Shown in pieces: positions 5,056-62,149 of a DNA stretch of 64,000 nucleotides. Below the pieces are notes generated by a model. The model had not been told where the DNA came from. It ran no database searches and was given only the letters and a program-made list of their open reading frames with translations. The first letter of the stretch is position 1. Each line of letters starts with the position of its first letter. The position numbers and the translations under genes are program-made. Source of the DNA: a virus; IMG/VR virus record IMGVR_UViG_3300044904_000056, positions 1 to 64,000 of that record. One strand, written 5' to 3'.

Positions 5056-5802
5056 TTAGCCTCCTAACTCTGACTTTTTGGCCAACCAAGACCTCGTAAT
5101 AGCCTCAGAATGGTGCCGACGGTATTCCGGGTCCAAAAATCGTTTCTTTGTTGATTCACTTTCCTTACGACGGGATTCCTTTGACCAGATTCTGCAGCTA
5201 TTTGCCTCGCCAATCTTGCGACAAGTTTCCTCTCCAAGATGTCTACCAATACGAGCTTTGGACATTTTTATACGAGTTTCCTGGGAAACTTTGTGGCCTT
5301 TGTTCGCTTCGCTGATCTTGAGACAATGCTCTTTAGACAGTTTCTTTCCTTTATGGGCTTTGCTAATCTTGAGACGAGCCTCTTCAGAATGCCTGCGGCC
5401 CAATTGATGATTATCTTTGCCCTTCCTGAGTTCGCTCAGCTTATGGCGATGTTCTTCCGATTTTGGTTTGTCCCTCATAGCTTTAGACATCTTGCGGCGA
5501 GTTTCCTTAGAACGCCGTATTCCCTTCAGAGCCTCGCCTGATGTTCGCCCTCTAGGAAATCTAGCAACTCTGAGAATCTCTAGATATATTGCGGCTCTTC
5601 GACAAAGTTCTGGGCTGTCGCAAAAGAATCCAATCCCAGAGTTACATCTGCCACAGAGAACTCCCCGAAACCCTCCTGTTCTATGGTCGTGATCTAGGGC
5701 AGGCCTATCTGGGGTGTCATCTCCGCATATCGCACAACGGCCTTCTTGAAGTTTTAGAAAATCCTTTTTCAAATCCCGCCTTTGACGTCCTCCGTATGAC
5801 AT
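5056..5802 (-). CDS. Endonuclease VII-type HNH homing endonuclease with NUMOD3 repeats
   Basis: CAIC...LDHDH.TG..RGVLC..CN.G.G followed by repeated HSEEARLKISKA-type units. Confidence 0.85.
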   Translation of the reverse strand: MSYGGRQRRDLKKDFLKLQEGRCAICGDDTPDRPALDHDHRTGGFRGVLCGRCNSGIGFFCDSPELCRRAAIYLEILRVARFPRGRTSGEALKGIRRSKETRRKMSKAMRDKPKSEEHRHKLSELRKGKDNHQLGRRHSEEARLKISKAHKGKKLSKEHCLKISEANKGHKVSQETRIKMSKARIGRHLGEETCRKIGEANSCRIWSKESRRKESESTKKRFLDPEYRRHHSEAITRSWLAKKSELGG

Positions 5803-5818
5803 TCAGAGTCTCCTTGGA

Positions 5819-6139
5819 TTAGATTGCGTTTACAACAACTGCGTAAGTCGGAACAGACACTCCATTAACAATCGCGTTCCCCCCAGTAGGGTGTAGTTTG
5901 AACCTCAACCCCTCGTGCTCAACGCTTACATCATCCGCCCCAGTAGATGCTGTTGTCGTAAGAGCGAATGTTCCATCACCGTTGTCGTGCGCGAGAACCC
6001 GGTAGCCTTGCACTTCTAGAGTTTGATCTGCCACTCCTGCACCTCCTGAAATGTCGTGAGTGGAAATGGAAAATGTCCCATCCCCCAAATCTTTCGCCTT
6101 GAATCTCAAGCATTGGAATTCTACAGTCAGGTCGCTCAT
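5819..6139 (-). CDS. Hypothetical protein with three internal beta-hairpin repeats
   Basis: Repeats of D.TVE..G.RF.A.D.GDGTF; likely start MSDLT at 6139. Confidence 0.6.
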   Translation of the reverse strand: MSDLTVEFQCLRFKAKDLGDGTFSISTHDISGGAGVADQTLEVQGYRVLAHDNGDGTFALTTTASTGADDVSVEHEGLRFKLHPTGGNAIVNGVSVPTYAVVVNAI

Positions 6140-6387
6140 TTCATTTCCCACCAGTCTGAGCAGTAAGAATCAGCTTCAGCGGGCAACAGATTAGAGCCAT
6201 TCCACAAGATAAAATACTTGTTCGTGCAACTCTTTCCATCCTTGCCTAGATATTCACAGTTTGCGCAACAGGAGCCACCCTTCGGCACTTTCATTCCAGG
6301 CTGATGATCAACAGGATACTTTACAGTACCACCAACCTCCCGGAAATCGCTGAACGTTGCTTCTCGGAGGCGTCGAATCAAATTCAA
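6136..6387 (-). CDS. Small Cys-rich protein
   Basis: CANC...C...YCSDWW pattern; N-terminal RLREA. Confidence 0.55.
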   Translation of the reverse strand: MNLIRRLREATFSDFREVGGTVKYPVDHQPGMKVPKGGSCCANCEYLGKDGKSCTNKYFILWNGSNLLPAEADSYCSDWWEMK

Positions 6388-6854
6388 TCCTTGTTGTACT
6401 GCGACCAGGAGACGGCATAGGGGTTGTCTACACCTGGAACTTTCTTGAGGGCCTTTACCTGCTCTTCCCTCCCTGGAGGCGCTTTCTCTCGGGCGCAGGC
6501 TTCCTTGTAGAATCGGGATAGCCTTGCTCCAAAGGACGATTCAGCAACGCGGATTCCCTTGTTCGGTGCAGAGACAGGTGTGTATGCTTCCCCAAGAGGA
6601 CCACGCTTGCCTTTCTTCGCATCCTTCCGGAGGTTCTCAGGCTTCGCAGCAGCCGTCATCTTCTTTTTCTTAAAGCCTCGGGGATTCTGAGTGCCCATTG
6701 ATTCCTGGTTGATCTTCTTTGCAGGCTTCTTAGGGCGCAGGAATTTCATCCCTGCTTCCCGAAGCTGTCGGATCATTCCACCACCAGCAGAGGCAGGAAA
6801 CATCGGGCCAGGATCATCGTACGGGTTGTCATTTACAGGAAAAATCGTAATCAC
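6384..6854 (-). CDS. Hypothetical protein, possibly internal head protein
   Basis: AAGGAG RBS; LREA, QES, KEA sites; C-terminal VDNPYAVSW. Confidence 0.55.
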   Translation of the reverse strand: MITIFPVNDNPYDDPGPMFPASAGGGMIRQLREAGMKFLRPKKPAKKINQESMGTQNPRGFKKKKMTAAAKPENLRKDAKKGKRGPLGEAYTPVSAPNKGIRVAESSFGARLSRFYKEACAREKAPPGREEQVKALKKVPGVDNPYAVSWSQYNKD

Positions 6855-6895
6855 AAGTAGCGGCTCCTTGCCTAACCTAATTTACCTTTACAGAC

Positions 6896-6934: not shown

Positions 6935-6962
6935 CAATACTGATTAGACCAATAGATTCTTG

Positions 6963-10629: not shown

Positions 10630-10639
10630 CTGGATAGCA

Positions 10640-17505: not shown

Positions 17506-17853
17506 TTATTCTGCTTCAACTGTTAGGCTAGTTGATGCTATTGATGGGTAGAATGCTGGGGTGCTGAAGGTGCCATTAGGAAAGACTGCGCGGACGTAAT
17601 AGACAGTATTGCTAGGTGGAACGGATGAAACTCCTTGTGAAGCAGTAAACGATTGCGGAGTGCTACAGCCCGCTACTGCTAGGCTTCCTACCTTGAGAAG
17701 GATTTTCCGATCTGGGGTTGTTCCGTACTCAAAGGATGCAGGAGAGCCGAATGTAACACAATCGTAAGTCCAATTGTAGGTAACATTGTGGGCGCAAGAG
17801 GCTAATGCTACAAGGCAGAGTAACACTAGCCCCAAGAGTTTGAGAAGTTTCAT
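17506..17853 (-). CDS. Putative lipoprotein
   Basis: Signal peptide ending LASC; beta-rich, YYVRAV. Confidence 0.55.
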   Translation of the reverse strand: MKLLKLLGLVLLCLVALASCAHNVTYNWTYDCVTFGSPASFEYGTTPDRKILLKVGSLAVAGCSTPQSFTASQGVSSVPPSNTVYYVRAVFPNGTFSTPAFYPSIASTSLTVEAE

Positions 17854-18359
17854 TGTGCTGCCCTCCTTGCTTCAGACCAAGGCTTGCCTTTCCGCGCTTT
17901 GCTCATTCTGCGGCGTGCTTCCTCAGAATGGTGGTAGCCTAGCGTAGGCGGAATTTGCTTAGCACGAGCTCCCCTCATCTTGCGACGGGTTTCCTTAGAA
18001 GGATGCTTACCTTTCATAGCTTTGCTTAACTTAAGGCGAGTTTCCTTAGAAGGGTGATGGCCTAGGCGGTTCTGATGGCCTTTCATAGCCTCACTCCTTG
18101 TTTGTTTTCTAGGGAATCGAGCAATTCTTGGGGTTTGTAGATATTGGATAGCCTTCTGTAGGAGTTCAGGGCTATCACAAAAGAAGCCAAGGCCAGCGTT
18201 ACACCCGTTACAGAGAACTCCTCGATAACCTCCTGTCCTATGGTCATGATCTAGAGTGGGATGGTCAGGAGGGGCATCACCGCAGATGGCGCAATGCCCT
18301 TCCTGGAGTTTCAGGAAATCCTTTTTCAGCTTCCAAATTGGGTGACTATAGTGTGCCAT
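17850..18359 (-). CDS. Endonuclease VII-type homing endonuclease with NUMOD3 repeats
   Basis: Nuclease domain nearly identical to that of 5056-5802. Confidence 0.85.
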   Translation of the reverse strand: MAHYSHPIWKLKKDFLKLQEGHCAICGDAPPDHPTLDHDHRTGGYRGVLCNGCNAGLGFFCDSPELLQKAIQYLQTPRIARFPRKQTRSEAMKGHQNRLGHHPSKETRLKLSKAMKGKHPSKETRRKMRGARAKQIPPTLGYHHSEEARRRMSKARKGKPWSEARRAAQ

Positions 18360-18820: not shown

Positions 18821-21800
18821 CTACTGACTAAACTCTTCTTGCTTACTGGCCCCGAAACCTTGCGGCGTCATCCGTTTGCCTAAGCCTCTTGGATGGCCCT
18901 GGTGGTCTTCAACGTGCTCAACTCGTGGGCGTTGCACCCTATCGCCGTCCTGCTGTTTGAAAGGCTCCATCCCTTCCCGCTTGCGTTTGCGTTCACGAGG
19001 AAAGCGCATAATTGGGACTTCGCTCTCGTGGTTGAAGTTGCCGCTTCGCAGTGACTTGCGGGCGTCGGTCACTTTGCCGCTGAGGCTTCTCTGATCCCGA
19101 ATCTTGTCAGGAGTTTCGATACGATCTGCTCTGCGTCCGATTGCGTGACGCTCGAATCGTAGATTTGCAGCCTCTCGCTTAATGTTTGTTGCAACGTCTC
19201 TCGGGTCAGCAGGCCAAGGTACTCGCTTGCCATCTGCCGTTGAGGCATTATGTGTAGTTGCAAATGAGGAAACACCGCTGTACGTTGACGTTCCTGGAGC
19301 AGTTGCTGGAGCCTCTCTAGATTCGCGGATAGAGGCGAGAGCACGGCCAAAACCCATTCCACTTGATCCCTTACCACTAGCTCCTGACGCGCTACCTCCA
19401 CCAGCCATTCCTCCCGCTTTGCCTTCTGCCTTTTGCTGCATACTATCAACGCCCTTGGTGACCTGTTGGTAGGCAGTGTTGATGAGGAATTCCTTCTGCG
19501 CGTCTTCGTTTGCGATTTCTTCCTGTTCTTCGTCATAGTCATAACTCGTGAACTGCATCTCCTTCGCTGCCGCTGCTGCAACACGCCTGTGACTCCACCA
19601 GCTCATCGACTCGCCAAACGCCAGGTCCTTCAGCTTCTCAGAGCGATTCTCTTCAGCCAGCGCTGGATACGTTGCCTCAACTTTGATGTCAAGGTCACCT
19701 GGAATCTCCTTGCGCTCAGCAGCCCGGACGAATACACGCTGGGCATCCTGGTAGAAGAACTGCTCCATCAGCTCTTGGTAGTCCTCGAAAGTCTTGATAT
19801 CTGGCTCAGTCTCGACAATCGCTCCAGCCTTCCCGCCCTCACCCCCACTTCCCCCAAGATACCGCATCGAGATACCAGAGCCCATCGAGATGAACTGAAG
19901 AATCAGGTCACCATCGGCTTGCGTATCACTCGCCCCAATTTCAGCAGCAACACCTTTCAGTTCTGCGGCCTTGTTGTGGATAAACCAACTACCAGGAATT
20001 GGTGGAGTGTTGAACTGTTGCTGAACCTGTTGAACTGCTGCTGCGTCGCCCTCAACCGAAATATCGAGGACGAACAGGTTGGCCATCTTGTTGCGAACGA
20101 TGCGATCATCTATGTATTCTTTCATGCGCCGCAGATAGCCAAGGACGGTGAACAGCTGACTACGCCCACGCTTCTCTGTCGAGGTGACATTGATCTTCAT
20201 GTGATAGTAATGCAAGGCAGGAATTTGTCTGATGATAAACTTAATCGTAGGAATGGGCAAATCCACATACCACTGGTATTGCGTCGGGTACTGCTGGTGA
20301 CAGTTGTGAACAAATACTCCGCTGGACAAAGCGAAGTTGTGGAACCGTTCCACAGTCAAATCGTAAACCGTATGGATTCCTGCGGGCACCACAGAGACTA
20401 CCTTGTGGTTGGAGAATCGTCCTCTGTCATCATGTTTCTGAGGATAGCTTCGATTAAGCATCCTCTCTCTCTTTTGAGGGTCCTTCCAAGCAGCTTTTAT
20501 TTTCTGACGATGTCTTTCCTTGTAGATGGGGTCTTGGAAATACTCTCTGATGCTCTCTGCCCTGGATTGCTGAGCAGCTAGGATTCTCTCCTGGTGCCAA
20601 GAGGCTAGCAAACGTCTTTCCTGTTTAGTCTGGGCCAAACGAGGAGAGCGGATAATGTATTCGCCCTTTTCAGAGTTTGCTGCTTTCCGCATAGCGTTGA
20701 CAGCCTTGGCTCGCTTCAGAGGGTCAGCCCAGAATTCCTTATGGCTTTGGGATTGTAGTTGCCGTCTCTCTTTCGTCTTCCAAGAGCGATCTCTCCCTGC
20801 ATGCATCTTTGCTATTGTTTCAGGGGTTGGCTTGGGGAGGTCGTCATAAACTCCGTCAGCCCAATCTTTCTTTTTCGATTCACTTATCTTAGCATAGTAT
20901 TCGGCAAAGTGTTCAGGGTCTCTTAGCGTATAGAAGGCTCTTGCCTTGGCGTTATTCTCTCCTACTGTGGCCAGCCAGATGTTCTCTGGGCTGTTGTTCG
21001 CTTGATTCTCATCAAAATGGTCTATTACAATCCCGTGCTCTTTGTAGATGCTCTTTTTCCAGCCTCTGAACTCAGAAGCAACCCGCTGGTGTGTTTGTTC
21101 CCAGCCTTGGTCAGGTTGATAGACTTGCTCGTAGCCTCTCTTGCGATAAAGAGGCATCAGGCCCATCCCTGGCTTCAAGTCCTCCGCGTTTAGGTAGGTT
21201 TCTCCATCACGCAGAAGATAAGGGTGGTCAAAGGATACGATGTCGCTCTTACCGTTATCTAGAGTGACTTTTACACAGCGCCGTTTCCCAGTCTTCCATA
21301 CTTTGGTAATTTGTCCAGGGACGACCAGATGGCGCTCTTCATCGAAAGAATATGCCCAGAGCTTTTTCCCTCGTTTGAATTCCCTCCGTGCCTTCCTGAC
21401 GGAAAGTTCCCGACCATCCAGTAGGGAGATTTTTGTTGGTCCCGAGAGGCAGTAGAATTCATTTTGGACATCGTCTGGGTCTGTAATCACCTCCCAGATT
21501 GTTGAAGGGTCCAAGCTCCGAAGCCTCAATCCCCAAGGAGCATCGTAGTAGCGGATGAACTGTTCCCCAAAGATTACCAAGTCTTGCAGTATTTGTTTCG
21601 ATGTCGTGTGCAAAGAATTCTTCATCCAGTGTCTATCCAAAGCATCCTGGCAAGCTACAGTGTAATCCTGGTAGACAGGGACAGGCTGCCCGTTAATCGG
21701 ATGCGGCTGCATCTGTCCTGTCTTTTGCTCAGCACGCATTACTGTTAGCCGAACGCCCTTACCTAATGTGAATTGTTTAATCACGTCTACAATTCTTTTT

Positions 21801-36163: not shown

Positions 36164-36376
36164 GCTATTCCCCGCCTAGGAACTTGCCTTCAATCTCGTT
36201 CAGTTTTCGGACATCATCCAACGTTGTTGTACCTTCAAGGAGGTGGTCGCATACCTCCTTGAAAGTGTCGAGGTCTGATTCAGTCATCAGAGGAGTAACC
36301 GTCCTGAGAAATGCGACTGTTGAAGAGATTGCTCCACTGAATGACTCAATCATTTTGTTCCCTTCTCCTGTTCGCG

Positions 36377-45610: not shown

Positions 45611-46222
45611 CTAGGGGCCTATCCGGGGGAAGCGTAGGGGGCCAGTCCTCCTGGCCCTGACTATTAGCTCAACAGTAGCCTTCAGCTTCTCCGCTGGGTG
45701 AAAGTAGAAGAACTTAGCTTGGGCCGAGAAGATAGGTATATGCCGCCACTTCCTAGCCGGAGGCTTCGCATAGCTCACGACCTCCATCCCCGCTAGCATC
45801 TCGTTCACACGTTCCCGGTGTTTTTGGACAAGGGCGTAGGGCTGTTCTAGGTAGAACCAGCAGCCCGGATATTGCAGCCACTGTCGGATATTCCAATGGT
45901 CCTGGGTATGCTCCGTCTGCTGAAGGGGAGCCACCCCTAGAGGCAGAATCACCGTAGAGTCCGGAGGGGGCCAAGTGTGGACTGGCTTGAGCATCTCTTT
46001 CCAATCGCAATCTCCTCCAATATAGTTGTATCCTTGCCAGTAAGCACCTACAGCATCGGCGTAAGTCTCCGCATCCCGCAGGGAGTTCTTCTTCACAGGG
46101 ACCATAGTCAGAATGGTAACCTGCTTGCCTTCCTGAATCCACTGCTCGATATGAGCCCCTAGCGAAAGGAAGGCATCATCACTGTGAGGCTCTACGATAA
46201 CCAGGCGGTCATTTATGGGCAC
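45611..46222 (-). CDS. PIG-L/LmbE-family N-deacetylase
   Basis: VIVEPHSDDAFLSLG, HTQDH, YLEQPY; likely GTG start at 46222. Confidence 0.75.
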   Translation of the reverse strand: MPINDRLVIVEPHSDDAFLSLGAHIEQWIQEGKQVTILTMVPVKKNSLRDAETYADAVGAYWQGYNYIGGDCDWKEMLKPVHTWPPPDSTVILPLGVAPLQQTEHTQDHWNIRQWLQYPGCWFYLEQPYALVQKHRERVNEMLAGMEVVSYAKPPARKWRHIPIFSAQAKFFYFHPAEKLKATVELIVRARRTGPLRFPRIGP

Positions 46223-46814
46223 GTTTCGGCCTCCGGAAGACGCTGAGATGCCGCCCATACCAGTTGGAAGTAATTCTTTCGTCAGCTAATATCGCTTCGC
46301 ACAACTCCTTGGTGACCTTCTTTTCAAAGGTGAATCCGGCAAGCACAAATAGTTGCCGCCAATAGCCTTTAGGCTTGCAGTTCACGTGGTACCGGCCCCA
46401 TTCAGAAGAGTCGATGGACAGGAGCACCCATTTTGAGGAGAGCCGTTTCACCGTATCCACTAAGACTTTCTCAGAGGACTCCGGGATGTGCTCGAATACA
46501 TCCCACGAGGTTACCAGGTCAAATTTTTTGTCCAAATGGAAGGACTTTGATAGGTCGTGGGCTATGTATTTCGCTCCTTCCGCGAATCTGCTGTTGAACT
46601 CAGAACCATCCACCCCATAAGCCCTTACTCCTAGCTCTGACAGCCGATTCACAAACGACATCGTACCACAACCCAGGTCAATGCAACGCTTGGGGTGAAA
46701 TCTGTTGAAGATGAGCTCTGCTAGATATTTCGAGGACACGTGGGGTCCTTTTGTGGACCTGGTGCGATTTTTGAACCACTTCAGTGGATAGAGTTCACTT
46801 AGCTTTTCTTCCAT
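46209..46814 (-). CDS. Class I SAM-dependent methyltransferase
   Basis: IDLGCG, GVDGS, FDLVTSWDVFEHI, HVNCKPKGYW. Confidence 0.85.
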   Translation of the reverse strand: MEEKLSELYPLKWFKNRTRSTKGPHVSSKYLAELIFNRFHPKRCIDLGCGTMSFVNRLSELGVRAYGVDGSEFNSRFAEGAKYIAHDLSKSFHLDKKFDLVTSWDVFEHIPESSEKVLVDTVKRLSSKWVLLSIDSSEWGRYHVNCKPKGYWRQLFVLAGFTFEKKVTKELCEAILADERITSNWYGRHLSVFRRPKRAHK

Positions 46815-47308
46815 AGTCGTGGGAACCTCATCGGGAAATTAGGTCTTGCAAATTCTCCGAAAAATTCTTTGGCAGCAGTATCATAAGCCTTCGCTGCGGC
46901 TATCGGATTGTCGAAGGAACCTAGATGAATAACTTTCCAATATACACAAATCTGCGCATACCATTTCCTAGCACCTTTGTGCCAAGAGACACCTTTGAAT
47001 CCTGATTTGTTATTTGAATGCTTTCCTTGGTTAGCCAGATTCTGCGAGTTAGAAGCATCTCTCAAATTATCTTTTTGACAATCTAGCCCATTTCCATTCT
47101 TATGGTCTATCCCTTTGCGCCCTAATATAAAATTGTGTAGAAGAAAATTAGGAACTCCCATTTGTCCGTGAGCTGCGTACGACTTACCCTTAGAGCCAGA
47201 TGTATAGTGCCATATGCCCTCAGCTGTTACACGTTCATAATCTTCGTCATCAACAAGTGCATAGGCTCTTATCTTTCCTTTTCGATTGCGAAGCGGAATT
47301 TTCTTCAT
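46799..47308 (-). CDS. HNH-AP2 homing endonuclease
   Basis: ALVDDED, IDHKNGNGLDCQKDNLR, SGFKGVSW...AAKAYD...GEFARPNF. Confidence 0.9.
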   Translation of the reverse strand: MKKIPLRNRKGKIRAYALVDDEDYERVTAEGIWHYTSGSKGKSYAAHGQMGVPNFLLHNFILGRKGIDHKNGNGLDCQKDNLRDASNSQNLANQGKHSNNKSGFKGVSWHKGARKWYAQICVYWKVIHLGSFDNPIAAAKAYDTAAKEFFGEFARPNFPMRFPRLWKKS

Positions 47309-49125: not shown

Positions 49126-50304
49126 CTACGCTGCTGCCTTGCAAGCCTTCCCGAAGATTTTGAGCTTGGCCCCGAGATGAGACACGTCACCCGTGAACAG
49201 AAACTTCCCGGCAATCTTCGCCTCTTGCCAGTCCGACTTCTTGAGCCCCAGCTTCTCCAGCTTGGTCTTCGGATAGAGATAGACGCGAAAGCCTTCGTCC
49301 TTGTCCGGGCGGATGAATCGTGCCCAAGGCCCACCAGGATACTTGACATAAAGCTCCCCGCTGCTCTTGGTCTCAACCTCCGCACCCAGCGCCTCTGCCT
49401 TGCTAGACACTAGGATGTCCTTCACCGCACTGGAGAGCTTACCACTCTTGGAAGACTTCTGCTTCTTTTCCTTGTGATGGTGATGCTTGTGTTCCTTTTT
49501 GGACACTTCCTTGTCCTCCTCTTTCTCGTGCTTCTTTTCTTCCCTGGGATGGTGATGCTTATGACCCTTCTCCTTCTTTCTCTTGTCTCCCTCCTCTTCC
49601 CTATTAGCTTTCAGAACTGCGATACAATTCTTGGACTCAACGCAACGCTGGCACTCTGGCACATCCGGGTCGGGGTATTTCCCGAAGCAATCTTCAATTC
49701 CGGAGGGAATCGGTATGGACGGTGCCCGGGGTTTATACGTTGCCGGGTCAATCTGTACGAGGGGGGAGCCTTTCGACTCCCCCCTCTCGCTGCTGTCGTC
49801 CGAGGCATCCTCAGAGCTATCATCCTTCTTTTCTGAAGAATCGTCCTTCTCTTTCCCGTGGTGCTTCTTGCTACCCTTCCTGCCCTTCGGAGGCTCTGGC
49901 TCCTCAGAGCTGTCGTCCTTCTTGTCGGAGGCATCAGAGGCGTCACTAGCATCGCTCTTGTCCGATGCGTCGCTAGCATCCGAGGCATCACTGGCATCTG
50001 AAGCATCAGAGGCGTCAGAAGCGTCACTGGCGTCAGAAGCTTCAGAGGAGCTATCGTCCTTCTTGTCGGATGCGTCGGAAGCATCCGATGCGTCGCTAGC
50101 GTCCGAAGAATCTGGAGCTTCAGAACTGTCGTCTGGCTCCTTCTTCTTCGTTGAGGACTTCTTGGGAGACTTCTTTGAGGACTTTGGAGTTTCTTCCTCA
50201 GAGCTGTCGTCAGACTTGTCCGGCTCCTCTTCCGAGGAATCGTCAGCAGCCTTCCCTGGTTTTGCCTTGTGCTTTTTCTTCTTGTCTACTTTCTTTTCGG
50301 CCAT
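49126..50304 (-). CDS. Largely disordered protein with (DAS)n repeats, Cys4 module and His/Lys tracts
   Basis: SDASDASDAS repeats, DDSSEE units, CFGK...ECQRC...C. Confidence 0.75.
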   Translation of the reverse strand: MAEKKVDKKKKHKAKPGKAADDSSEEEPDKSDDSSEEETPKSSKKSPKKSSTKKKEPDDSSEAPDSSDASDASDASDASDKKDDSSSEASDASDASDASDASDASDASDASDASDKSDASDASDASDKKDDSSEEPEPPKGRKGSKKHHGKEKDDSSEKKDDSSEDASDDSSERGESKGSPLVQIDPATYKPRAPSIPIPSGIEDCFGKYPDPDVPECQRCVESKNCIAVLKANREEEGDKRKKEKGHKHHHPREEKKHEKEEDKEVSKKEHKHHHHKEKKQKSSKSGKLSSAVKDILVSSKAEALGAEVETKSSGELYVKYPGGPWARFIRPDKDEGFRVYLYPKTKLEKLGLKKSDWQEAKIAGKFLFTGDVSHLGAKLKIFGKACKAAA

Positions 50305-50925
50305 CTACCATCCTCCTTCAGAGTCAACAACTGCGGTTCTTATTTCGTCCACTACACGCCGCACATCCCCACTTCGCATCCCTAGATACCCCCGGATGTG
50401 TCGCAGTTTGATGCGGAAGCTCTTTGCACCCCGGACATTCTGTCCCTGGGAAATAAGTTTGTTTCTCCGGCAGAAATCCCTCCACGCAAACTCAGAAACT
50501 TGAATTGGTGGGTCTAAAAGTATTTGCAGGAACATCCGGGCTTCACAGGAGAGTATCGGATATAGAACTTCCGCCCGTTCGTGCATCCGGTAAAGGAAGT
50601 TATCTGCATAGTCTGGCCAGTTGTCTGCCTCCCCTAATTGGACCTCAACTCCGTCCCGGCTCCAAGTTCTATCAAACCGGGAAAGGTCCCGAAGGCGGTT
50701 GTATAGGGCACGTTTGAAATATCGTGCGAAATAGATTTGACCATCTGGGAATTCTTCGCAGCATTGGACCAATATGAGCAGGCCCTCTGCTTCTAGCTCC
50801 TCTGATGATCTACGGAAATGACCAGGTATCGCGTAGTGATGCGCTACCCAGTGGATGAGATTCTTGAAACGACGCAAGGCAACGTCCGTATTGTATGCCA
50901 TGACGCTGGGATACGCCTCCTCCAA
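50305..50925 (-). CDS. Sigma70/ECF-like phage sigma factor
   Basis: LIHWVAHHY...EELEAEGLLILVQC..EF....FARYFKRALYNRLRD (region 2). Confidence 0.65.
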   Translation of the reverse strand: MEEAYPSVMAYNTDVALRRFKNLIHWVAHHYAIPGHFRRSSEELEAEGLLILVQCCEEFPDGQIYFARYFKRALYNRLRDLSRFDRTWSRDGVEVQLGEADNWPDYADNFLYRMHERAEVLYPILSCEARMFLQILLDPPIQVSEFAWRDFCRRNKLISQGQNVRGAKSFRIKLRHIRGYLGMRSGDVRRVVDEIRTAVVDSEGGW

Positions 50926-50983: not shown

Positions 50984-51619
50984 CTACTTGCCTATTTTGG
51001 CTTTCCGGCGAGGCGTGGAAACCTTCTGACTCCTGGAAAGCGGTCTCTTCTTGGGAACAGCGGCTCTCTTGGTTTGCGCTTTATTCTTGCCAATTCTTCC
51101 TCCGTGTACACGACGTACTCGACTGGGATTTTTCTTCCATGCGTTGATGGAATGCTTAGGACCACGTGGCGCTTTCCGGTTGCTGGGTCTACTCTTTCGC
51201 TTTTGAACTTTGCTTCTGGGATCAGTTTTCTCAGGCTGGACAAAGTCGCATTTGCGTAATTTGACCTCGGCTCTACGGATGCGCTTTGGGAAGGACTCAG
51301 AGCCGATGAGCTTCCTGCACTTGAGACAACGGACTGTGCTTGCACCTTCTACCTCCTCTCTGCCTGATGGGCAATGGCATATCTCTGAAGGTACATCTCT
51401 TGGGAATCGGAGGGGCCTTGGATACCGCTTGATTGACCGGGGAGTTCTGACCGTTATCATACTCCAAAACCAATTTTGCCTAGTCTGGTCTTTCTGGGTC
51501 CACACTTGTACCCCAAATTTGGGGAGCAATTTGTAGACCTTTCCAGTGCGCCCGGTAACGGTATCCACAACATACGTCACTCCAGGGATGATAACTTTCT
51601 CACCGTAGGCCCCATCCAT
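50984..51619 (-). CDS. Hypothetical protein, possibly continued in the +1 frame (50992-51345)
   Basis: AGGAGG RBS; both frames carry RFPR. Confidence 0.55.
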   Translation of the reverse strand: MDGAYGEKVIIPGVTYVVDTVTGRTGKVYKLLPKFGVQVWTQKDQTRQNWFWSMITVRTPRSIKRYPRPLRFPRDVPSEICHCPSGREEVEGASTVRCLKCRKLIGSESFPKRIRRAEVKLRKCDFVQPEKTDPRSKVQKRKSRPSNRKAPRGPKHSINAWKKNPSRVRRVHGGRIGKNKAQTKRAAVPKKRPLSRSQKVSTPRRKAKIGK

Positions 51620-51697: not shown

Positions 51698-52387
51698 CTA
51701 CTTCTTTTTCTTCGGAGCGACCACCTTCACCTTCGCAGCCACGTACTCCTTCAAAGGTTTTGCTGGCGAAAAGCGTATCTTATTACTTGCTGGCTTCGCA
51801 GGGAACGTCTTATGCTCCCCTGTGAATGGAACGATTCCCTTTCGTTTTGGCAGGGCCTTCCGGTAGGCAACCCGGATACGGCCAATCTCCGGCAGGCGGA
51901 AGAATCGGTCATTCTTCAGACCGTGGTGAGCTTCCGTCACCAGAGCTTCGTAGATGGACCGGACAATTTTGGTTGTCTGGCCTGTTTCCTTCGCAATTGC
52001 AGTGTAGAGTTTCATCTTGCGTGATTCTCCTTTGTCTCCCTCTTTGGGGAATATGATTATGTACTTCTGCCGGGTCCGGGGTCCGCTATAGAGCTTCGCA
52101 CCAAAATGCTCCTGGAGGAGGCTGATAATCTCCTCAGAAAGGTGCGTGGTGTAGCAGCCGTGAAACTTCTTCACTACGATTTCGTGAAGCTGTTCCTTGG
52201 GTACGTTGAAATAGTCAATTCCTAGACGGCGGTACAAATTCGCCATCTCGATATCGGCGTGGGCTCCTCCGTGGCGGAGGCGTTCTAGTTTATCTGTCTT
52301 TTCCTGACGGAAGAGACGGTTGTCAGCGAGACGCTTTGCTTTTTGTTCGGGAGTCTCGTTTGAGGTTATGTGGAAGGCGTGACTCAT
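51698..52387 (-). CDS. hup: HU/IHF-family DNA-binding protein (HU domain 51698-52015) with an in-frame upstream domain
   Basis: AIAKETG...RLPEIGRIRV...RKGIVPFTGE...PA...IRFSPAKPLKE. Confidence 0.8.
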   Translation of the reverse strand: MSHAFHITSNETPEQKAKRLADNRLFRQEKTDKLERLRHGGAHADIEMANLYRRLGIDYFNVPKEQLHEIVVKKFHGCYTTHLSEEIISLLQEHFGAKLYSGPRTRQKYIIIFPKEGDKGESRKMKLYTAIAKETGQTTKIVRSIYEALVTEAHHGLKNDRFFRLPEIGRIRVAYRKALPKRKGIVPFTGEHKTFPAKPASNKIRFSPAKPLKEYVAAKVKVVAPKKKK

Positions 52388-53839: not shown

Positions 53840-54232
53840 TCACTTCTGAATCTTCCGTTGAACTTCCCTCAGACGGGCCTTCGTCCAGTTCCGAGCAGCC
53901 GGATGGAGCATGTATATTGGTTTGCGTAGTGGTACATAGCCACATTCCTTGAAAGTTTTCTGTGCTACCCTACCACACACTAGTATAATGTCTGGGTCAA
54001 GCCTAATCAGATTTTCCGCAAGCCAATCCGGATCGGGTTTGCCGTGATGTTTGGCCTTAGTGACTAATTCCCGACAGACATTAGTCAACAACAGCCGTTC
54101 TTTATTCTGTTCGCCCACCAGCTTGTAGAGCCTACGGCCAGAAGCGTTCAGGGGGTTGATCTTGAAGTAGCGAGGAGCACGGCCAGTTCGATAGCCCCAC
54201 ATCGTTTCGAGGACTGCTACGATTGGCCCCAT
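53840..54232 (-). CDS. Small uracil-DNA glycosylase-fold protein
   Basis: SGRRL, LTN, PDIILVCGRVA, MLHPAAR. Confidence 0.6.
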   Translation of the reverse strand: MGPIVAVLETMWGYRTGRAPRYFKINPLNASGRRLYKLVGEQNKERLLLTNVCRELVTKAKHHGKPDPDWLAENLIRLDPDIILVCGRVAQKTFKECGYVPLRKPIYMLHPAARNWTKARLREVQRKIQK

Positions 54233-54233: not shown

Positions 54234-55616
54234 TCAATTCACCTTCTCTTTCGGAATTGGTTTAACTTCTGGAGTTGAGGCCGGGGGAAGAGTTGTTGCA
54301 TCAGCAGGGACGGACAGGACGTGCCCGCCTTCGATGGAGAGTTTCATCATCAGGTCAACATCAGCCTGCTTTGTATTCGGAGAGTGGAGGCGCTGCATTC
54401 CGCGTTCAGGGGAGATGTAGAACATATCACCTTTCCCGAGGAGGTGTTCCGCCCCCTTGCAGTTCAGGATGGTCTTACTATCTGCTGAGGACGGGACTCG
54501 GAATGCTGCGCGAGCCGGGAAGTTGACCTTGATCTTGCCGGAAACAACATCCACAGATGGGCGCTGCGTTGCAGCTATCACGTGGATACCGGCAGCGCGG
54601 GACATTGCCGATATTTGGGCCATCTTATCGGTGAAGGACTTCTTCTCTGACAGAACGAGGTCTGCCATCTCATCGATGACGACGACAATATAAGGCCAGC
54701 AGTCATCGGGCTTTCCTTCCGCCTTCATCTTGTCGTTGTACTCCTTGAGGTTCTTACACTTGAACCCGAAGAGGTTGGAAGTCCTACGGCGCATTTCCTG
54801 AATCAGCCTCTCCATAATCGAGAGGGCGTCATAGACTCCAGCAACCGGGGGCTGCATCAGGTGAGGCAGGCCTTGGTAGTGGAAGAGTTCCACGGACTTT
54901 GGGTCAATCAGGACCAGCTTCATCTGCTTCGGGGTACGCATGTAGAGGAGAGAGGTTAGGATACCGTTGATCCAAACGGATTTGCCTGCGCCTGTTGAGC
55001 CTGCGATAAGTAGGTGAGGCATCCTCGTTAGGTCCTCTACATAGGGCTGACCGTTGGACTGGACTCCGAAGTTGATCGGCAGTTCCATATCGTCCCTGTG
55101 GGCGATTGCGGCCCCTAGGCAGTCCGCAAATTGGATCTCCGTTCTCTCCTTATTCGGTACAGAAATAGCAACCGCACTCTTGCCGTGAAGCCTCTGGATG
55201 GAGACATCTTCCGCTGCTAGACCAATGGCTAGGTCCTCGTTAATGTCCTTGATTCTCCGGAGCCGGGTATAGCGGTCAGGGCTGAACTCATACTCCGTAA
55301 CGATAGGACCAACGCGGATATCCGTAACCTTCCCAGGACAATCGAAGTCGCGGGTGCGGGTCGTTATGATATCCACTACCTTCTGCTGTTCGGGGTTGGC
55401 AGCTAGTTCCCGAGGGAATCGCTGGACGCCCTTTGGGTAGGCTTTCTTGCCCTTCTCTAGTCCTTCCTTCTCTGGGTCGTACTTATCGATGAGATTCCCG
55501 CAGAGCAGGCAGCGCCTATAAAGGGTATAACGGGAAATGGAAACAGCATCCTTTCCACCTACACCTTTACAGCCTCGACAAATCGCCAGCTTGAAGCCGT
55601 TCGTATGATCCTTCAT
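54234..55616 (-). CDS. ftsK: FtsK/SpoIIIE DNA translocase motor
   Basis: GPIVT.YE, PHLLIAGSTGAGKS, IDPK, VIDEMADL, ATQRPS, GAEHLLGKGDM; likely start MKDHT at 55616. Confidence 0.9.
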   Translation of the reverse strand: MKDHTNGFKLAICRGCKGVGGKDAVSISRYTLYRRCLLCGNLIDKYDPEKEGLEKGKKAYPKGVQRFPRELAANPEQQKVVDIITTRTRDFDCPGKVTDIRVGPIVTEYEFSPDRYTRLRRIKDINEDLAIGLAAEDVSIQRLHGKSAVAISVPNKERTEIQFADCLGAAIAHRDDMELPINFGVQSNGQPYVEDLTRMPHLLIAGSTGAGKSVWINGILTSLLYMRTPKQMKLVLIDPKSVELFHYQGLPHLMQPPVAGVYDALSIMERLIQEMRRRTSNLFGFKCKNLKEYNDKMKAEGKPDDCWPYIVVVIDEMADLVLSEKKSFTDKMAQISAMSRAAGIHVIAATQRPSVDVVSGKIKVNFPARAAFRVPSSADSKTILNCKGAEHLLGKGDMFYISPERGMQRLHSPNTKQADVDLMMKLSIEGGHVLSVPADATTLPPASTPEVKPIPKEKVN

Positions 55617-55876
55617 TCTCTCTTCTCCTTGCCCAGAGACCCTAAAGGGTACTCGGGCGTTTCTTAACCTGAGCACTGCCTATGTCAATCACCTTCCTAC
55701 TACTCTGGCAGATCGGACAACGATTCCAATGGTCATACCACTGCAAAGTCGCGGCGATAAACCCGCCTATGGAGTTGTCCAGACGGTTTACCCTTTTCAC
55801 TAGCCTGTTCTCAACTCGACATCGGCGGCTTTGCACCATGAGACCACCTCCTCCAGGTACTCGGGCTGTTGAATTG

Positions 55877-56826: not shown

Positions 56827-56854
56827 TTCAGGCCTCCTCCACTTGTCAGATTCA

Positions 56855-57470
56855 AGCTAGACAGCGGCTAGGATGCTCTCCTGAAAGTCTCTTGTTGCAT
56901 TTCAGACGGCGCGATACAGAACGCGCCCAGATAACAAGAGTGCCTACTCTCAGATAGGCATTCAGAGCACCCGAGTCGCTGGACGGAGACGTTCCTAGCA
57001 AACTGCCTGCGGTATCCTCTTTCGAGGGCCTGATCTCCGTCTGCGCTGTTAGTGTTAGTGTTTGTAAAACTAGGTTCCACGCAGATTCACCTATACTTCG
57101 TTTTTACGTCCGTTCTGTCGGACGGTGGTAATATCTCGGGCCACCACGCCTAACCCTTTTGGATTCCTGGCTGGCTCTTTTTCCTCCGGAGAGGTATTTG
57201 TATGTTGAGCCGAGGTTCCGCACTCGAAAGTCCTTACGCGCCCTACTCGTGTACAGCGAATACAGGAGGGTTCAGACAGGCTACTCGGAAGGCTTTCGAG
57301 ACTCCTACGCTTTACGGTTTGAAGTATTCGCAACCCGGTTCAACGTCAACCCTCGACTTTCCCTGTTCGGTATTTCCGCTATGCAGGCCATAAGCCATAC
57401 GCGAAAAGGAGCCTAGCCCCCGAGACCGTCGTCGGTGGGGCAGAGGGTATATAAAGGATGTAGCTGAATC
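56855..57470 (-). ncRNA. Candidate large structured non-coding RNA
   Basis: No credible ORF; many nested stems, a GAAA tetraloop and crossing helices (see findings). Confidence 0.55.
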
Positions 57471-57490
57471 GGTGGAGGTGGGAACTCTCT

Positions 57491-57507
57491 ACGGGGGAAA
57501 CCCCCGT
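57491..57507. promoter_or_regulatory. GC hairpin after the small ORF
   Basis: ACGGGGG-AAA-CCCCCGT. Confidence 0.5.
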
Positions 57508-57515
57508 GCTACCTA

Positions 57516-57674
57516 CTACGCAGCGGTAGCCTGCCGGATAATCTGTTTCGCCGTCCGGATGACCTGTACGGGGGTCATGTGCTTGATTCCCCGCTTCCCG
57601 TGGCGGACCTTCGCAAATCCGCGAACGAGGGCACCCGTAAGAACGAGACCAGAATTTTTGGAATTGGTTTTCAT
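57516..57674 (-). CDS. Unannotated 52-aa basic microprotein
   Basis: AGGAG RBS; MKTNSKNSGLVLTGALVRGFAKVRHGKRGIKHMTPVQVIRTAKQIIRQATAA; double TAG stop. Confidence 0.6.
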   Translation of the reverse strand: MKTNSKNSGLVLTGALVRGFAKVRHGKRGIKHMTPVQVIRTAKQIIRQATAA

Positions 57675-58048
57675 AACGTCTCCTAGGGTGATGGTTTCAC
57701 CCGTAGAGAATTCCGTCTCCTACTTCTCCGCGATATGGGGTAACTCGAATTGCTTTCTCTCCCGAGGCTGTTCCCCGCCTACTCCTTCCGCCGTTTCCGA
57801 GCTAAAAAGCTCTACGCGGTAGGACTCTAGGAGAGGCCGTCCGGAACGTCTCCGGGGCCTCGGGCTTTACTTACTTTCGGCTTTGCGTCCTTAATGCCCT
57901 AGCGTTTTTCGCTCCGGTCGGACTATTTTAGGTTAGTCCGTTAGGAGGTTCTCTCCTATGTCCGTGGCCTATCCCCGCTCTGCCTTTTCGGGATACCCTT
58001 TATTTTTCAATGAGCAAAAGCTAGCGTCTAAACTCTAGCTTACAGGAA

Positions 58049-58078
58049 TATCTTCCCCTTTTTAGAGGTAGAAGTAAA
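58049..58078 (-). promoter_or_regulatory. Possible host sigma70-type promoter
   Basis: TTTACT-17 nt-GAAGAT just upstream of the hairpin series. Confidence 0.35.
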
Positions 58079-58128
58079 GCACTATTTTCCAGTACTTTCG
58101 TTTGAGTTACCCCCTAAAAAGCCTGGGA

Positions 58129-58842
58129 TTATGCAGAATTTCTGTTGGCGTTCCAACAAAAAATAAACCTGTCAAAGTGAGGGTTGAATTTACCCCCCGC
58201 TGCCCCCCGGTCAAATTCTGGTGGGTAAAAAACGTTGTTAAAGCATCTTTTTAGGTATTCAAGCCTACGCATTACATTCTTCACTCCTGCTTTCTTCTCT
58301 CTGGAAAAATGGTATTCCATCACGAGTTTGTTACAACATGGAATCAATTCGTCATCCAACAACCCAAACTCGCTCCCTTCAACATCCATCTTCACCCCAT
58401 CGAATATTCTCCCTGCAAAGAAATTTGCGTGTAAATTCGGAAGCCTCCCAGAAGGGTGTTCAGGCAAATTCCCTTTCACAATTGTTGCCCTGCTGAAATC
58501 TGTTTCTCTCCTCCCTTTGTAAAATTGTAGGGAGGATTTATGGAGATTCGTTATAGCAAATCTACGACAGCAAAATTCAGGAATATTCAAACGGAGGAGT
58601 CGAAAGCATTTTGGGTCAGGTTCATAGCATTCAGCCTTTGCTCCAAGAGAACGACAATATAATGCAAACGCTCCGATGTTTGCACCCAAATCTAACCATA
58701 ATTCACCCTCCTCAACATCAAAGCCAAGTCCCACTCTCCGGTAGCACCTCTTCACTAGACACTCATTTAGAACACTCTCATCACTTGTCCCTGGACGAAA
58801 ATACGCCTCCTCTAAACCAAATTTTCTCTTCTCAATTTTCAT
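58129..58842 (-). CDS. FkbM-family methyltransferase
   Basis: RPGTSD, WLDLGANIGAF, YEPDP, KMDVEGSE, MEYH. Confidence 0.85.
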   Translation of the reverse strand: MKIEKRKFGLEEAYFRPGTSDESVLNECLVKRCYRRVGLGFDVEEGELWLDLGANIGAFALYCRSLGAKAECYEPDPKCFRLLRLNIPEFCCRRFAITNLHKSSLQFYKGRRETDFSRATIVKGNLPEHPSGRLPNLHANFFAGRIFDGVKMDVEGSEFGLLDDELIPCCNKLVMEYHFSREKKAGVKNVMRRLEYLKRCFNNVFYPPEFDRGAAGGKFNPHFDRFIFCWNANRNSA

Positions 58843-60074: not shown

Positions 60075-61435
60075 CTCTTCCTTGCCTTCTTCCAATTGTC
60101 CTCAGGCTGATGCTCACTCTCGTTGACGGTGAACCGGTCACGGTCCAATTCTACATTTACCACCCCGCCCATCCCAACATCTCTCGCATACATCAGATAG
60201 ACTCTCGCCTGCTCCGGCTTCTGCTCGGCTTCCTCTTCTGTTTGACAAAAAGCTACTAGGAAGTCAAGAGTGAAAAGTTGAGAGATATCCTCGGCTATAT
60301 CCTCTGCTGACAGCCGTTTCTTTTTCAGACCTGCCCGATTCGTCTGAGTTGCTGTCCAAACAGGAATATCCCGCTCCGTCGCAATTCCCCGGAGGTCAAG
60401 AGCTACTTGGCCTACAGATAGGCGCTGCTCATCAAATTTCTGAGTGGGCCGAAAGACACGGATGTAATCCACGAATAAAACATCAATCTTGTACCCAAAT
60501 TCGGCTTCTACATCATCCAGCCAAAGGGAGATATCTTCAGCCGTCCCTTTTCCTGAAGGCCACTGCTGTATGTGAAGGCCCCCTTTCATCTGCTTATGGG
60601 ACACCTTGAGCCGCCTTCTTGCTTTCTTCAAAACCTTATTCAGCTTAGACCCTGCTTCTGTTGAAAGACTTGCCTTTGTCAATTCACTTGCCGGAATTTG
60701 CGTAATCATCGAGTCGATGCGTTTCCGGTATTTCTCTTTCGAGAGTTCCCCTGTTGCAATCGCTACATTTTTCCCTTTCCAGAGTGCCCCAACTGCAAAT
60801 CTTGCTAGTAGTGTGCTCTTACCAGCTTTGCTCCCTGCCAATATGATTGCAAGCTCCCCCCCACCAGGCCCCCCTCCCATTCTCCTGTCAAGCCGGGGAA
60901 GAAAGTGTGTCCCAACGACATTCCTCCTGTCTTCAGCCCAGCGATGCCTACTCATAGTGTCTCCCCAGTAATCCACCCCAAGATTTTTTGTTGAGTGAAG
61001 ATTTTCAAGGGCCTTCATCCTTCGGAGAACTTTGTCAAAATCTCCCGCGTTGATATCCCGCTCTGAGTCAACCAGTGCCTTCCGGTATTTCTGATCCTTG
61101 GCAAAACGAGTAGCTTTGCTACGGACAACAAATATGTCATCCAGCTTTTCTTCGAACGCACCACGTATCACCCGTTTGTACAGCGGCCATACATCCCGCC
61201 TGCGTTTCCCAAGATAGTCCTTCACCAGCACGGACAGGGAAGCCTTGGAAATTGTAATCAGCCCCCGCTCCTGCCTCTCAACCACTTCCTCTTTCATCAG
61301 ACGGCAGATATCTACGAAGATTGGGTTGGTGAAGTAGGACGGCTCAACTACCGGATGCGCTGCCCTCGGCTCCCTGATGTACCACGCCAACAACAATTTC
61401 TGAAAACTTTCACCCCAAGGATACTCATCAGCCAC
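60071..61435 (-). CDS. dnaB: DnaB-family replicative helicase
   Basis: GGELAIILAGSKAGKST, VDYI, WTATQTNR, IAED. Confidence 0.9.
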   Translation of the reverse strand: MADEYPWGESFQKLLLAWYIREPRAAHPVVEPSYFTNPIFVDICRLMKEEVVERQERGLITISKASLSVLVKDYLGKRRRDVWPLYKRVIRGAFEEKLDDIFVVRSKATRFAKDQKYRKALVDSERDINAGDFDKVLRRMKALENLHSTKNLGVDYWGDTMSRHRWAEDRRNVVGTHFLPRLDRRMGGGPGGGELAIILAGSKAGKSTLLARFAVGALWKGKNVAIATGELSKEKYRKRIDSMITQIPASELTKASLSTEAGSKLNKVLKKARRRLKVSHKQMKGGLHIQQWPSGKGTAEDISLWLDDVEAEFGYKIDVLFVDYIRVFRPTQKFDEQRLSVGQVALDLRGIATERDIPVWTATQTNRAGLKKKRLSAEDIAEDISQLFTLDFLVAFCQTEEEAEQKPEQARVYLMYARDVGMGGVVNVELDRDRFTVNESEHQPEDNWKKARKR

Positions 61436-61455
61436 TGGCTATTGTCTCCTGTTAG

Positions 61456-61464
61456 ATAGAACGC
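61456..61464 (-). promoter_or_regulatory. GCGTTCTAT upstream motif copy 6
   Basis: GCGTTCTATCTAACAGGAGACAATAGCCAGTG. Confidence 0.7.
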
Positions 61465-61474
61465 GGAGTTGGCG

Positions 61475-62149
61475 CTATCGTTCCAACTCAGATTTGATAC
61501 CCCGAATCACGCTGTGCCGGAGCCTCGAATTTTTCCTAAGCTCCCACAAGGCCCTCCGCACGTGTCTCCACTCCCTACTACTGTACAAATAGCCTGCAAT
61601 GAATAGGGGGCTCAAATCCTTGAAGATTGCGAGGAAGACTTGGCTTGATGGAACCCCAAGCTGCCTTTTGGCTTCCATAAATATCCTCGTGGAAGATTTC
61701 GCACTAGCATAGGCATCCTCCTCTGTCCATACATTGAGATACCGCTTCCAGTCCTCCTCCAGCTTGTACAACTGCCTGTCTTTCTTAACCAACCAGGTGT
61801 AGATTTCCAGAGCCTTATCGCTCGCCAGAAATGCCGGATGGGGCATGGTCCTCGAATTCTTGTAGTGGCCATACCGACAAAGCACCTTCACATACAGGCT
61901 TGGGTCTAGCTTCTTTTCAACCAGCTTCGGAGCAAGAAGCATAAATGCTCGCATTGCTCTCCAGCCTACCTTCGTCCTGTAGATATCCCAATCCCAAGTC
62001 CGCTTGTTCTTGTACGACCTGCTACGTTTGCTAACATCCTTCGATTTCGCAATCTTGTTGTACGTCAGCCTCAGAATCCCCATCACCAGCTTTTCACTTC
62101 CTGTCAATTTCCATCTCGGGAATCTCTGTGAAGTCCTTGCCATTCGCAC
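61475..62149 (-). CDS. Hypothetical replication-region protein (helicase loader candidate)
   Basis: Helical basic protein directly upstream of dnaB; function inferred from position only. Confidence 0.55.
   Translation of the reverse strand: MRMARTSQRFPRWKLTGSEKLVMGILRLTYNKIAKSKDVSKRSRSYKNKRTWDWDIYRTKVGWRAMRAFMLLAPKLVEKKLDPSLYVKVLCRYGHYKNSRTMPHPAFLASDKALEIYTWLVKKDRQLYKLEEDWKRYLNVWTEEDAYASAKSSTRIFMEAKRQLGVPSSQVFLAIFKDLSPLFIAGYLYSSREWRHVRRALWELRKNSRLRHSVIRGIKSELER

Follow-up and report, generated by a model that had tools for sequence, protein, structure and literature searches.

The tetrapeptide Arg-Phe-Pro-Arg (RFPR) recurs in the tails and linkers of about 15 protein families of a soil phage, and it is clearly selected as a peptide. 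We have found it in a 64,000-nt window (positions 1 to 64,000 of the IMG/VR virus record IMGVR_UViG_3300044904_000056), which opens a phage record of 104,040 bp that has nearly all of its genes on the minus strand. Judged by its distribution, RFPR is a property of one clade of roughly 100-kb soil phages. We tentatively favour, at just short of even confidence, a docking role for RFPR, in which one protein of the replication, recombination and packaging machinery would read the motif and serve as the common partner of the carriers; that this reader is a protein, and a single one, we infer.

RFPR is selected as a peptide

Six-frame translation of the window located all 16 RFPR sites reported in the initial annotation, each in a minus-strand coding frame (the positions reported there are the low end of each 12-nt site, from 5551-5562 to 62114-62125), and one copy on the plus strand. 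The 16 copies fall in 15 open reading frames (ORFs), because a 50-aa microprotein carries two. These carriers had been described as mostly unrelated, which has to be narrowed to about 14 independent families in the window, since the two EndoVII nucleases among them are paralogous. In the whole genome, RFPR occurs 19 times on the coding strand versus twice on the opposite strand, both times in short junk ORFs, and its carriers amount to about 15 families when the three EndoVII-NUMOD3 paralogues are counted as one acquisition.

The expected number of copies, which had been estimated at well under one, is 0.29 from amino-acid composition, compared with the 19 seen (Poisson p about 1e-22). Shuffling within proteins led to the same result, with 300 shuffles averaging 0.24 RFPR and reaching a maximum of 2. 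The largest number of proteins sharing any one 4-mer in these shuffles was nine, while the real RFPR is shared by 15. The 4-mers that were equally or more enriched were pieces of Ser/Asp or homopolymer repeats, limited to one to four proteins.

For comparison, we have used soil-metagenome and IMG/VR contigs with polymerase homologues of 43-89% identity. These relatives came from alignment-based polymerase scans of viral contigs (a query with a single polymerase matched nothing) and comprised G001 (92.9 kb), G002 and G003 (about 25 kb each, the latter also being L084), and 9-23-kb pieces of others. The motif logo and its placement were derived from 69 aligned clade instances, and the substitution counts from seven genomes.

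The free codon variation pointed out in the initial annotation is complete, with all six Arg, both Phe and all four Pro codons in use, and over the 69 clade instances the proportions of Arg, Phe and Pro codons inside the motif are close to genome-wide usage. It is therefore the peptide that is under selection. Since the majority of copies are close to the start or end of a gene, as regulatory DNA also is, a gene-boundary DNA or RNA signal (promoter, terminator, modification or restriction site) translating as RFPR had to be weighed, together with plain chance. The degeneracy is, however, found exactly at synonymous positions, and the 19 coding-strand matches all lie in the translated frame, with only the 2 matches mentioned above on the other strand. 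The degenerate DNA pattern for RFPR gave a similar picture in three relatives (25, 11 and 8 forward matches versus 4, 0 and 2 reverse). Synonymous degeneracy, genome-like codon use and the restriction of the matches to the translated frame therefore exclude a DNA-level signal, and with the p value given above the probability of either explanation is negligible; both were refuted by the frame and codon analysis.

The four residues tolerate little change. An R follows RFP in 16 of 18 cases and precedes FPR in 16 of 19. KFPR was never seen in the seven genomes and RFPK only once (in G001), Lys not replacing Arg otherwise. At position 2, the F:Y:W ratio in the same genomes is 55:5:0, with Gly at background level only. 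The variants RYPR, RYPK, LFPR and RFPG are present, as previously noted; all five RYPR copies lie inside tandem motif arrays, three of them directly beside RFPR. The extended logo reads [P/I/V]-x-R-F-P-R-[L/T/E]. Position -2 is P, I or V in 71% of the instances, position +1 is most often Leu, and there is a 2-2.5 fold enrichment of Glu at +1 to +3. Taken more widely, the flanks have a net basic charge (+2.8 per 20 residues versus +0.5 for the background).

Placement in tails and linkers was equally consistent. Within the 69 instances, 55 lie within 25 residues of the N-terminus or 30 residues of the C-terminus (25% expected) and the other 14 are internal. N-terminal copies begin at residues 3-9, and C-terminal copies are followed by 0-6 residues, most often five. 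No copy lies within the Pfam-matched domain of its carrier, as the initial annotation had proposed. In RecA, the tag is predicted by the AlphaFold2 model to be a coil of lower confidence (pLDDT 63) ahead of the first helix (residues 19-32). Tandem arrays are common in the relatives, with a period of 6-9 residues and up to three RFPR in one tail.

Carriers and distribution of the motif

Repeats aside, RFPR led the enrichment of 4-mers in seven of the eight contigs from relatives (p 1e-8 to 1e-22), whose polymerases are 43-56% identical to that of the phage. The L007 contig has three copies only (p 1e-4), and in the 9-kb L087 copies are present and not among the top five 4-mers. No comparable 4-mer was found in 80 loci around remoter polymerases (25-30% identity), where the few RFPR strings lay in junk frames.

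Orthologues in the relatives are also tagged. The initial annotation had suggested looking for the tag at non-homologous positions; it mostly occupies homologous ones instead, with lineage-specific gains and losses. Orthologues tagged in place include the portal tail, the FtsK linker, the HMUDK C-terminus, the protein upstream of DnaB and the RYPR-RFPR pair of a 211-aa protein. RecA has its N-terminal tag in every relative inspected, and a protein-database search extended this to 28 of 29 full-length clade RecAs (45-77% identical), which begin M-x(1-7)-RFPR, the remaining one having RWPR; bacterial RecAs and outgroup phage RecAs have nothing at this position. The metallopeptidase keeps its C-terminal tag in G001 and G003, and not in L005/L085. 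A scan of 1.8 billion representative proteins with this metallopeptidase gave 42 homologues, and only the four closest end in R[FY]PRxxK[IM]G, the 38 remoter ones being without tag. Since remote homologues of the same families do not have it, the tag is an add-on acquired within the clade. Its turnover is visible elsewhere: the kinase tag is doubled in L005, the L007 kinase and HMUDK are without it, and a glycosyltransferase-like protein and other proteins are tagged only in G002 or G001. Carriers in every lineage inspected are RecA and the adjacent small two-copy protein, which in G001, G003, L005 and L007 stands at the place of the microprotein. Taken together, enrichment, codons, placement and relatives bear out the general part of the initial proposal, a phage-wide short linear motif (SLiM), selected as a peptide and lying in tails and linkers of mostly DNA-acting proteins; the specific functions proposed along with it (import into a DNA compartment, a reader of modified DNA, a protease or degron site) are putative.

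Phyletic profiling against outgroups did not single out any gene, since nearly all clade-specific genes co-occur with the tag. The clade is isolated, with polymerase identity falling from 43% to 29%.

The carriers are almost all proteins of DNA metabolism or packaging (Table 1). Genes were called with a greedy ORF picker, the tagged microprotein and one overlapping ORF being recovered by hand, and protein identities were obtained from Pfam and PHROGs scans of about 75 proteins. These scans agreed with the earlier assignments of EndoVII+NUMOD3, portal, TerS-like helix-turn-helix (HTH) protein, PhageMetallopep, RecA, HMUDK helical domain, P-loop kinase, HNH-AP2 and FtsK alpha/beta, and gave only a weak match for PIG-L. 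In this genome, RFPR is absent from the polymerase, DnaB, primase, helicase, SbcCD, exonuclease, single-stranded DNA-binding protein (SSB), UvsY-like protein and HU-like protein, as well as from both sigma-like proteins, TerL and the DUF559-type homing endonucleases. The polymerase, a fusion of PolA with a uracil-DNA glycosylase (UDG) domain (37998-40664), does not contain a close variant either. The virion module (65-104 kb) carries no tag except in an inserted EndoVII endonuclease.

The initial annotation had argued that the tag grants access to the phage chromosome, since even selfish homing endonucleases have it. The EndoVII copies do carry it, but the argument is weaker than stated, because these three paralogues share one acquisition and the DUF559-type enzymes are without tag.

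Two of the tagged frames overlap. Both are open over about 350 nt, with 50992-51345 (minus strand) lying inside 50984-51619 (minus strand), and the inner frame encodes a small domain. The inner frame is conserved at the protein level in G001 and G002, where its tails have three and two RFPR copies, respectively, and its own RFPR array directly precedes a sigma-like gene (50305-50925). This frame appears to be a genuine overlapping gene, coupled to the sigma one.

Table 1. Genes carrying RFPR, and the candidate reader, with positions in nt, strand and place of the motif in the protein
Product	Gene	RFPR site	Strand	Remarks
EndoVII+NUMOD3 homing endonuclease	5056-5802	5551-5562	-	Residue 81, between nuclease domain (11-75) and NUMOD3
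Paralogous EndoVII+NUMOD3 endonuclease	17850-18359	18108-18119	-	Residue 81
Intein-containing portal	18821-22606	18995-19006	-	Residue 1201 of 1261, C-terminal tail; also in G001 and G003 portal tails
TerS-like HTH protein	26457-27134	27099-27110	-	Residue 9; G001 TerS-like protein has two N-terminal copies
PhageMetallopep	32846-33337	32864-32875	-	5 residues before C-terminus; tail only in closest family members
50-aa zinc-ribbon microprotein	33498-33650	33504-33515	-	C-terminal copy
50-aa zinc-ribbon microprotein	33498-33650	33630-33641	-	N-terminal copy
RecA	35099-36163	36143-36154	-	Residues 4-7
5-hmdU DNA kinase (HMUDK) helical-domain protein	42817-43686	42835-42846	-	5 residues before C-terminus
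P-loop (HMUDK-type) kinase	44400-45023	45003-45014	-	Residues 4-7
PIG-L-like protein (weak match)	45611-46258	45623-45634	-	3 residues before C-terminus
HNH-AP2 endonuclease	46799-47308	46817-46828	-	5 residues before C-terminus, past AP2 domain
Overlapping ORF	50992-51345	51013-51024	-	Closes LFPR/RFPG/RFPR array in tail
211-aa Cys/His protein	50984-51619	51398-51409	-	RYPR-x2-RFPR ahead of Cys/His cluster; same in G001 and G002
FtsK-like ATPase	54234-55676	55410-55421	-	Residue 86, linker before alpha domain (96-175); kept in G001 and G002
224-aa protein upstream of DnaB	61475-62149	62114-62125	-	N-terminal; kept in G001
SAP-domain protein	64221-64733	two copies		Beyond the window
Third EndoVII paralogue	82888-83376	one copy		Beyond the window
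gp32-fold SSB	36377-37330	none	-	Long acidic S/D tail; candidate reader only

Possible readers of the motif

A docking motif was ranked first because the peptide is short and invariant, sits in disordered terminal positions, is multivalent, and is retained in orthologues with turnover elsewhere. The preference for Phe over Tyr and Trp, the hydrophobic residue or Pro at -2 and +1, and the Glu after the motif favour a protein groove over DNA. In disordered ends and linkers, RFPR would be accessible to a binding site of the common protein partner, and such binding could gather unrelated proteins at replicating and packaging phage DNA. Tandem copies would raise avidity, and the small proteins with two or three copies may act as adaptors or competitors. 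The partner could be phage-encoded, for instance a gp32-type SSB hub. A conserved host hub is equally possible and would account for the constancy of the motif among lineages that are about 50% diverged.

Several observations weigh against a docking motif. The core replisome (PolA-UDG, DnaB, primase, SSB) is without tag, and a cytoplasmic hub would sit awkwardly with the tag of the portal tail, a region expected, from solved portal structures, to point into the capsid. Copies 6 residues apart cannot fill two pockets of a globular partner at once. The net basic flanks, and carriers that plausibly all touch DNA, would fit a nucleic-acid reader equally well. Lastly, no sliding clamp or known peptide-binding hub (no DnaN, PCNA or gp45 family) was recognised by Pfam and PHROGs among the about 75 proteins, a search that did not take in every ORF and that divergent clamps escape, as hidden Markov models (HMMs) miss them.

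Clamp-binding peptides are among the closest comparisons for a docking motif. Their consensuses are QL[SD]LF for the bacterial beta-clamp, and the PIP box and the APIM motif [KR][FYW][LIVA][LIVA][KR] for PCNA. In phages T4 and RB69, the C-termini of gp43, gp33, gp55 and ligase bind gp45 (PMC2988020, PMC6212786). As with RFPR, one short peptide is found at the termini or linkers of many unrelated DNA-metabolism proteins, sometimes repeated, and in the known systems it is read by one hub. APIM also resembles RFPR in its basic-aromatic-x-x-basic pattern, and it can sit at the very N-terminus. RFPR matches none of these consensuses, however, having an invariant Pro and no Gln/Leu core. In addition, the DNA polymerase is here without RFPR, and packaging and DNA-modification proteins carry it.

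Hubs centred on an SSB constitute a second precedent, exemplified by the DDDIPF tip of E. coli SSB and the acidic tail of T7 gp2.5. In T4, gp32 organises partners from recombination, replication and helicase loading. Its acidic C-terminal domain is represented by the entry for the gp32-Dda complex (PDB 8GME). The phage SSB likewise has a gp32 fold and an acidic tail, and the partner classes of T4 gp32 are the same as those of the RFPR carriers. The difference lies in polarity: the known SSBs carry the conserved peptide themselves, with each partner supplying a pocket of its own, whereas here RFPR is on the partners and none is on the SSB.

The SSB is nevertheless the most obvious phage-encoded hub and thus a candidate reader, with a polarity reversed relative to T4. 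Its AlphaFold2 model matched 1GPC and 2A1K in a fold search (E about 2e-8, probability 1.00); PDB profile searches with alignments of the SSB and the UvsY-like protein gave nothing by sequence, gp32 being recognised by the fold search only. Residues 251-292, an about 40-residue Ser/Asp tail, are disordered and acidic, the C-terminal helix is conserved, and the tails are acidic in about 30 homologues. The gene lies two genes from the tagged recA (with a small ORF, 36165-36353, between them) and has the UvsY-like gene on its other side. Past the acidic tail, the protein ends in a natural His6. Co-folding of the SSB, the UvsY-like mediator and RecA residues 1-32, with alignments, gave a score of 0.00, which we counted neither for nor against binding. 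A 130-aa protein (53840-54232, minus strand) was also considered as a hub. Its identity to the G001 orthologue (78%) matches the level of conservation of the capsid protein, and it is translationally coupled to the FtsK-like gene. It was dropped, because by eye its motifs resemble those of UDG family 4 and its length falls well below that of an ordinary UDG, as would suit a truncated UDG-like enzyme; it had no PHROGs match.

The reader could, alternatively, be DNA. RFPR would then be a direct nucleic-acid hook on the thymidine-hypermodified DNA of the phage, with the two Arg and the aromatic residue gripping the minor groove or unstacked bases where the major groove is obstructed, and thereby giving extra hold to any protein; we regard this as rather unlikely. 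Known hooks of this kind are the AT-hook, with its R-G-R-P core, and minor-groove arms such as Hin GRPR and the SPKK repeats. AT-hooks are also Arg/Pro mini-motifs in disordered tails or linkers of unrelated DNA-binding proteins, often in tandem, they need Arg rather than Lys, and their surroundings are basic. RFPR shares with them the net basic flanks and the absence of Lys in place of Arg, and its tandem period of 6-9 residues could track along a groove. For all carriers whose function can be recognised, DNA is either acted on or close by. This holds for the tagged portal tail and TerS N-terminus, for the linker that joins nuclease and NUMOD3, for the tail past AP2, and for the hypermodification DNA kinases and the deacetylase-like and glycosyltransferase-like proteins. 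The clade members covered have dUMP-hydroxymethylase-like and HMUDK genes; thymidine modification would obstruct the major groove and may put a premium on minor-groove contacts. The invariance of the motif across the diverged lineages is also what would be expected of a reader that is unable to co-evolve. However, RFPR has an invariant Phe in place of the AT-hook Gly, its neighbours are acidic or hydrophobic, and it is confined to one phage clade. To our knowledge, no DNA hook has the sequence RFPR. Glu enriched right after the motif and hydrophobics at -2 and +1 are unexpected on a polyanion, and Phe is strongly preferred though Tyr and Trp stack at least as well. Moreover, outgroup phages with HMUDK genes are without tag, and the tailoring enzymes vary within the clade (HMUDK being 26-29% identical in some members) with the tag unchanged.

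Further explanations have the tag sorted or processed instead of docked. RFPR could be an address for a membrane-less replication factory or compartment, its Arg-aromatic stickers partitioning clients into a condensate of acidic proteins scaffolded by the SSB tail and a 392-aa protein (49126-50304, minus strand). This would be the form of the import or localisation signal mentioned in the initial annotation that fits a 104-kb phage, and it would suit tags that are multivalent and disordered, on non-virion proteins needing to gather at phage DNA. Long D/E/S-rich tracts of differing sequence are found in two or three proteins of each clade member, and 4-mers from these tracts are the only ones that out-rank RFPR. 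As an observation on the 392-aa protein itself, it consists mostly of SDASDA-type repeats, with a 4-Cys motif and a Lys/His/Glu-rich stretch, and its conserved C-terminal domain of about 100 aa had only weak Atlas fold matches (TM below 0.5, e.g. YbjN fold). Stickers would, however, tolerate Lys, Tyr and variable spacing, and RFPR is near-invariant with a fixed Pro. No compartment protein was recognised, including any shell or import protein of the jumbo-phage-nucleus type, and the genome is far smaller than those of jumbo phages. Such a condensate is a matter of pure inference and appears improbable to us.

We give no greater weight to RFPR as the recognition site of an enzyme. This could be an Arg-directed modifying enzyme, a prolyl isomerase or a chaperone with the aromatic-Pro bond as its target, a protease that cleaves behind Arg, or an adaptor for degrons that determines the lifetime of early and middle proteins. 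The strict four-residue specificity, the exposed disordered position and the repeats resemble sequons and cleavage sites, and among the phage gene products are a metallopeptidase, several methyltransferases and many glycosyltransferases. Phe-Pro-Arg is, in addition, a classic substrate triplet of trypsin-like proteases, and aromatic-Pro bonds have a high cis content. Against this, a cut 3-9 residues from the N-terminus or 0-6 from the C-terminus would change little. The 14 internal copies, and terminal copies that do not sit at the extreme free end, are unlike terminal degrons of the ssrA or N-end rule type. Late proteins (portal, TerS) are tagged alongside early ones, and neither position nor phyletic pattern connects a candidate modifying enzyme with the tag. 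Cargo and capsid-targeting peptides (the T4 capsid-targeting sequence, the cargo-loading peptides of encapsulins and the encapsulation peptides of microcompartments) are, like RFPR, terminal labels on unrelated proteins, read there by one structure; the RFPR carriers are not virion contents save for the portal tail, and the virion module is without tag. The letters RFPR also occur in motif VI of ATP-dependent DNA ligases, often preceded by Leu and followed by Phe, as a strand inside the folded OB domain that contacts the nucleotide. As the phage RFPR is in disordered add-on tails of non-ligases, this match is treated as a coincidence.

A broader proposal would make RFPR a clade-private self-address code, which recognises the hypermodified phage DNA or partitions proteins into a zone scaffolded by poly-acidic proteins, so that acquirers, homing endonucleases included, would gain access to the chromosome. 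We consider it doubtful, if worth retaining. A docking motif with a protein reader is still the reading we would place ahead of these.

Genome setting and meaning of the tag

By Pfam and PHROGs, the genome has a replication and recombination block with the PolA-UDG fusion, DnaB, primase, an SF2 helicase, SbcCD-like proteins, a 5'-3' exonuclease, RecA, the UvsY-like mediator and SSB. The same scans identified a thymidine-hypermodification cluster (thymidylate-synthase-like enzyme, HMUDK helical domain, P-loop HMUDK-type kinase, the weak PIG-L match and methyltransferases) and packaging genes comprising the TerS-like protein, TerL in two ORFs and the intein-containing portal, with several homing endonucleases besides. 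Cultured phages are only remote relatives, the polymerase being at most 27% identical to those of SPO1-like Bacillus phages.

Some further features were observed. TerL is split over ORFs 23521-24189 and 25283-26488 (minus strand), an ATPase part and a nuclease part that both match phrog_38, with an HAD/PNK-like gene and small ORFs in the ~1.1 kb between them; this is either a split gene or an insertion. The portal gene contains an intein with an HNH domain (Pfam Intein_splicing, residues 409-768), which is missing from the G001 orthologue (883 aa) and apparently has a counterpart in G003 (1271 aa). The protein encoded at 51698-52387 (minus strand) begins with an extension of 120 residues, followed by a DNA-binding domain of the HU family (residues 124-216), and it recalls TF1, the HU-type protein of the hmU-containing phage SPO1. 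At about 56830-58130, in a genome that is otherwise packed, ~1.2 kb are without a convincing minus-strand ORF; an Rfam scan of this stretch (E up to 0.1) found no family. A second tetrapeptide, RLRE, has 15 copies in 13 proteins of the whole genome (0.86 expected) with varied codons, and 8 copies in G001. Unlike RFPR it is not terminal, its copies being internal and apparently within helices, in virion and non-virion proteins alike; examples are residue 120 of the 53840-54232 protein and capsid-region genes of L002.

Full-text literature searches on RFPR in phages, on phage SLiM and clamp motifs, and on phage-nucleus import found no description of the tag, in agreement with the view of the initial annotation that no such system has been described. 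In cells, shared docking peptides organise replication and repair through clamp- and SSB-binding motifs, and phages have rarely been examined for peptide codes spanning the proteome. RFPR provides an unusually clear code of this kind in an uncultured clade, with four invariant residues, about 15 families per genome and at least 30 lineages, and with visible gain and loss. The identity of its reader would show how recombination, DNA hypermodification, homing-endonuclease activity and packaging are coupled at one site, and it would yield a minimal portable tag that directs proteins to phage DNA. If modified DNA proved to be the reader, RFPR would be a new kind of nucleic-acid-binding mini-motif. 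If it is a self-address code, it would represent a protein-sorting principle not described for non-jumbo phages.

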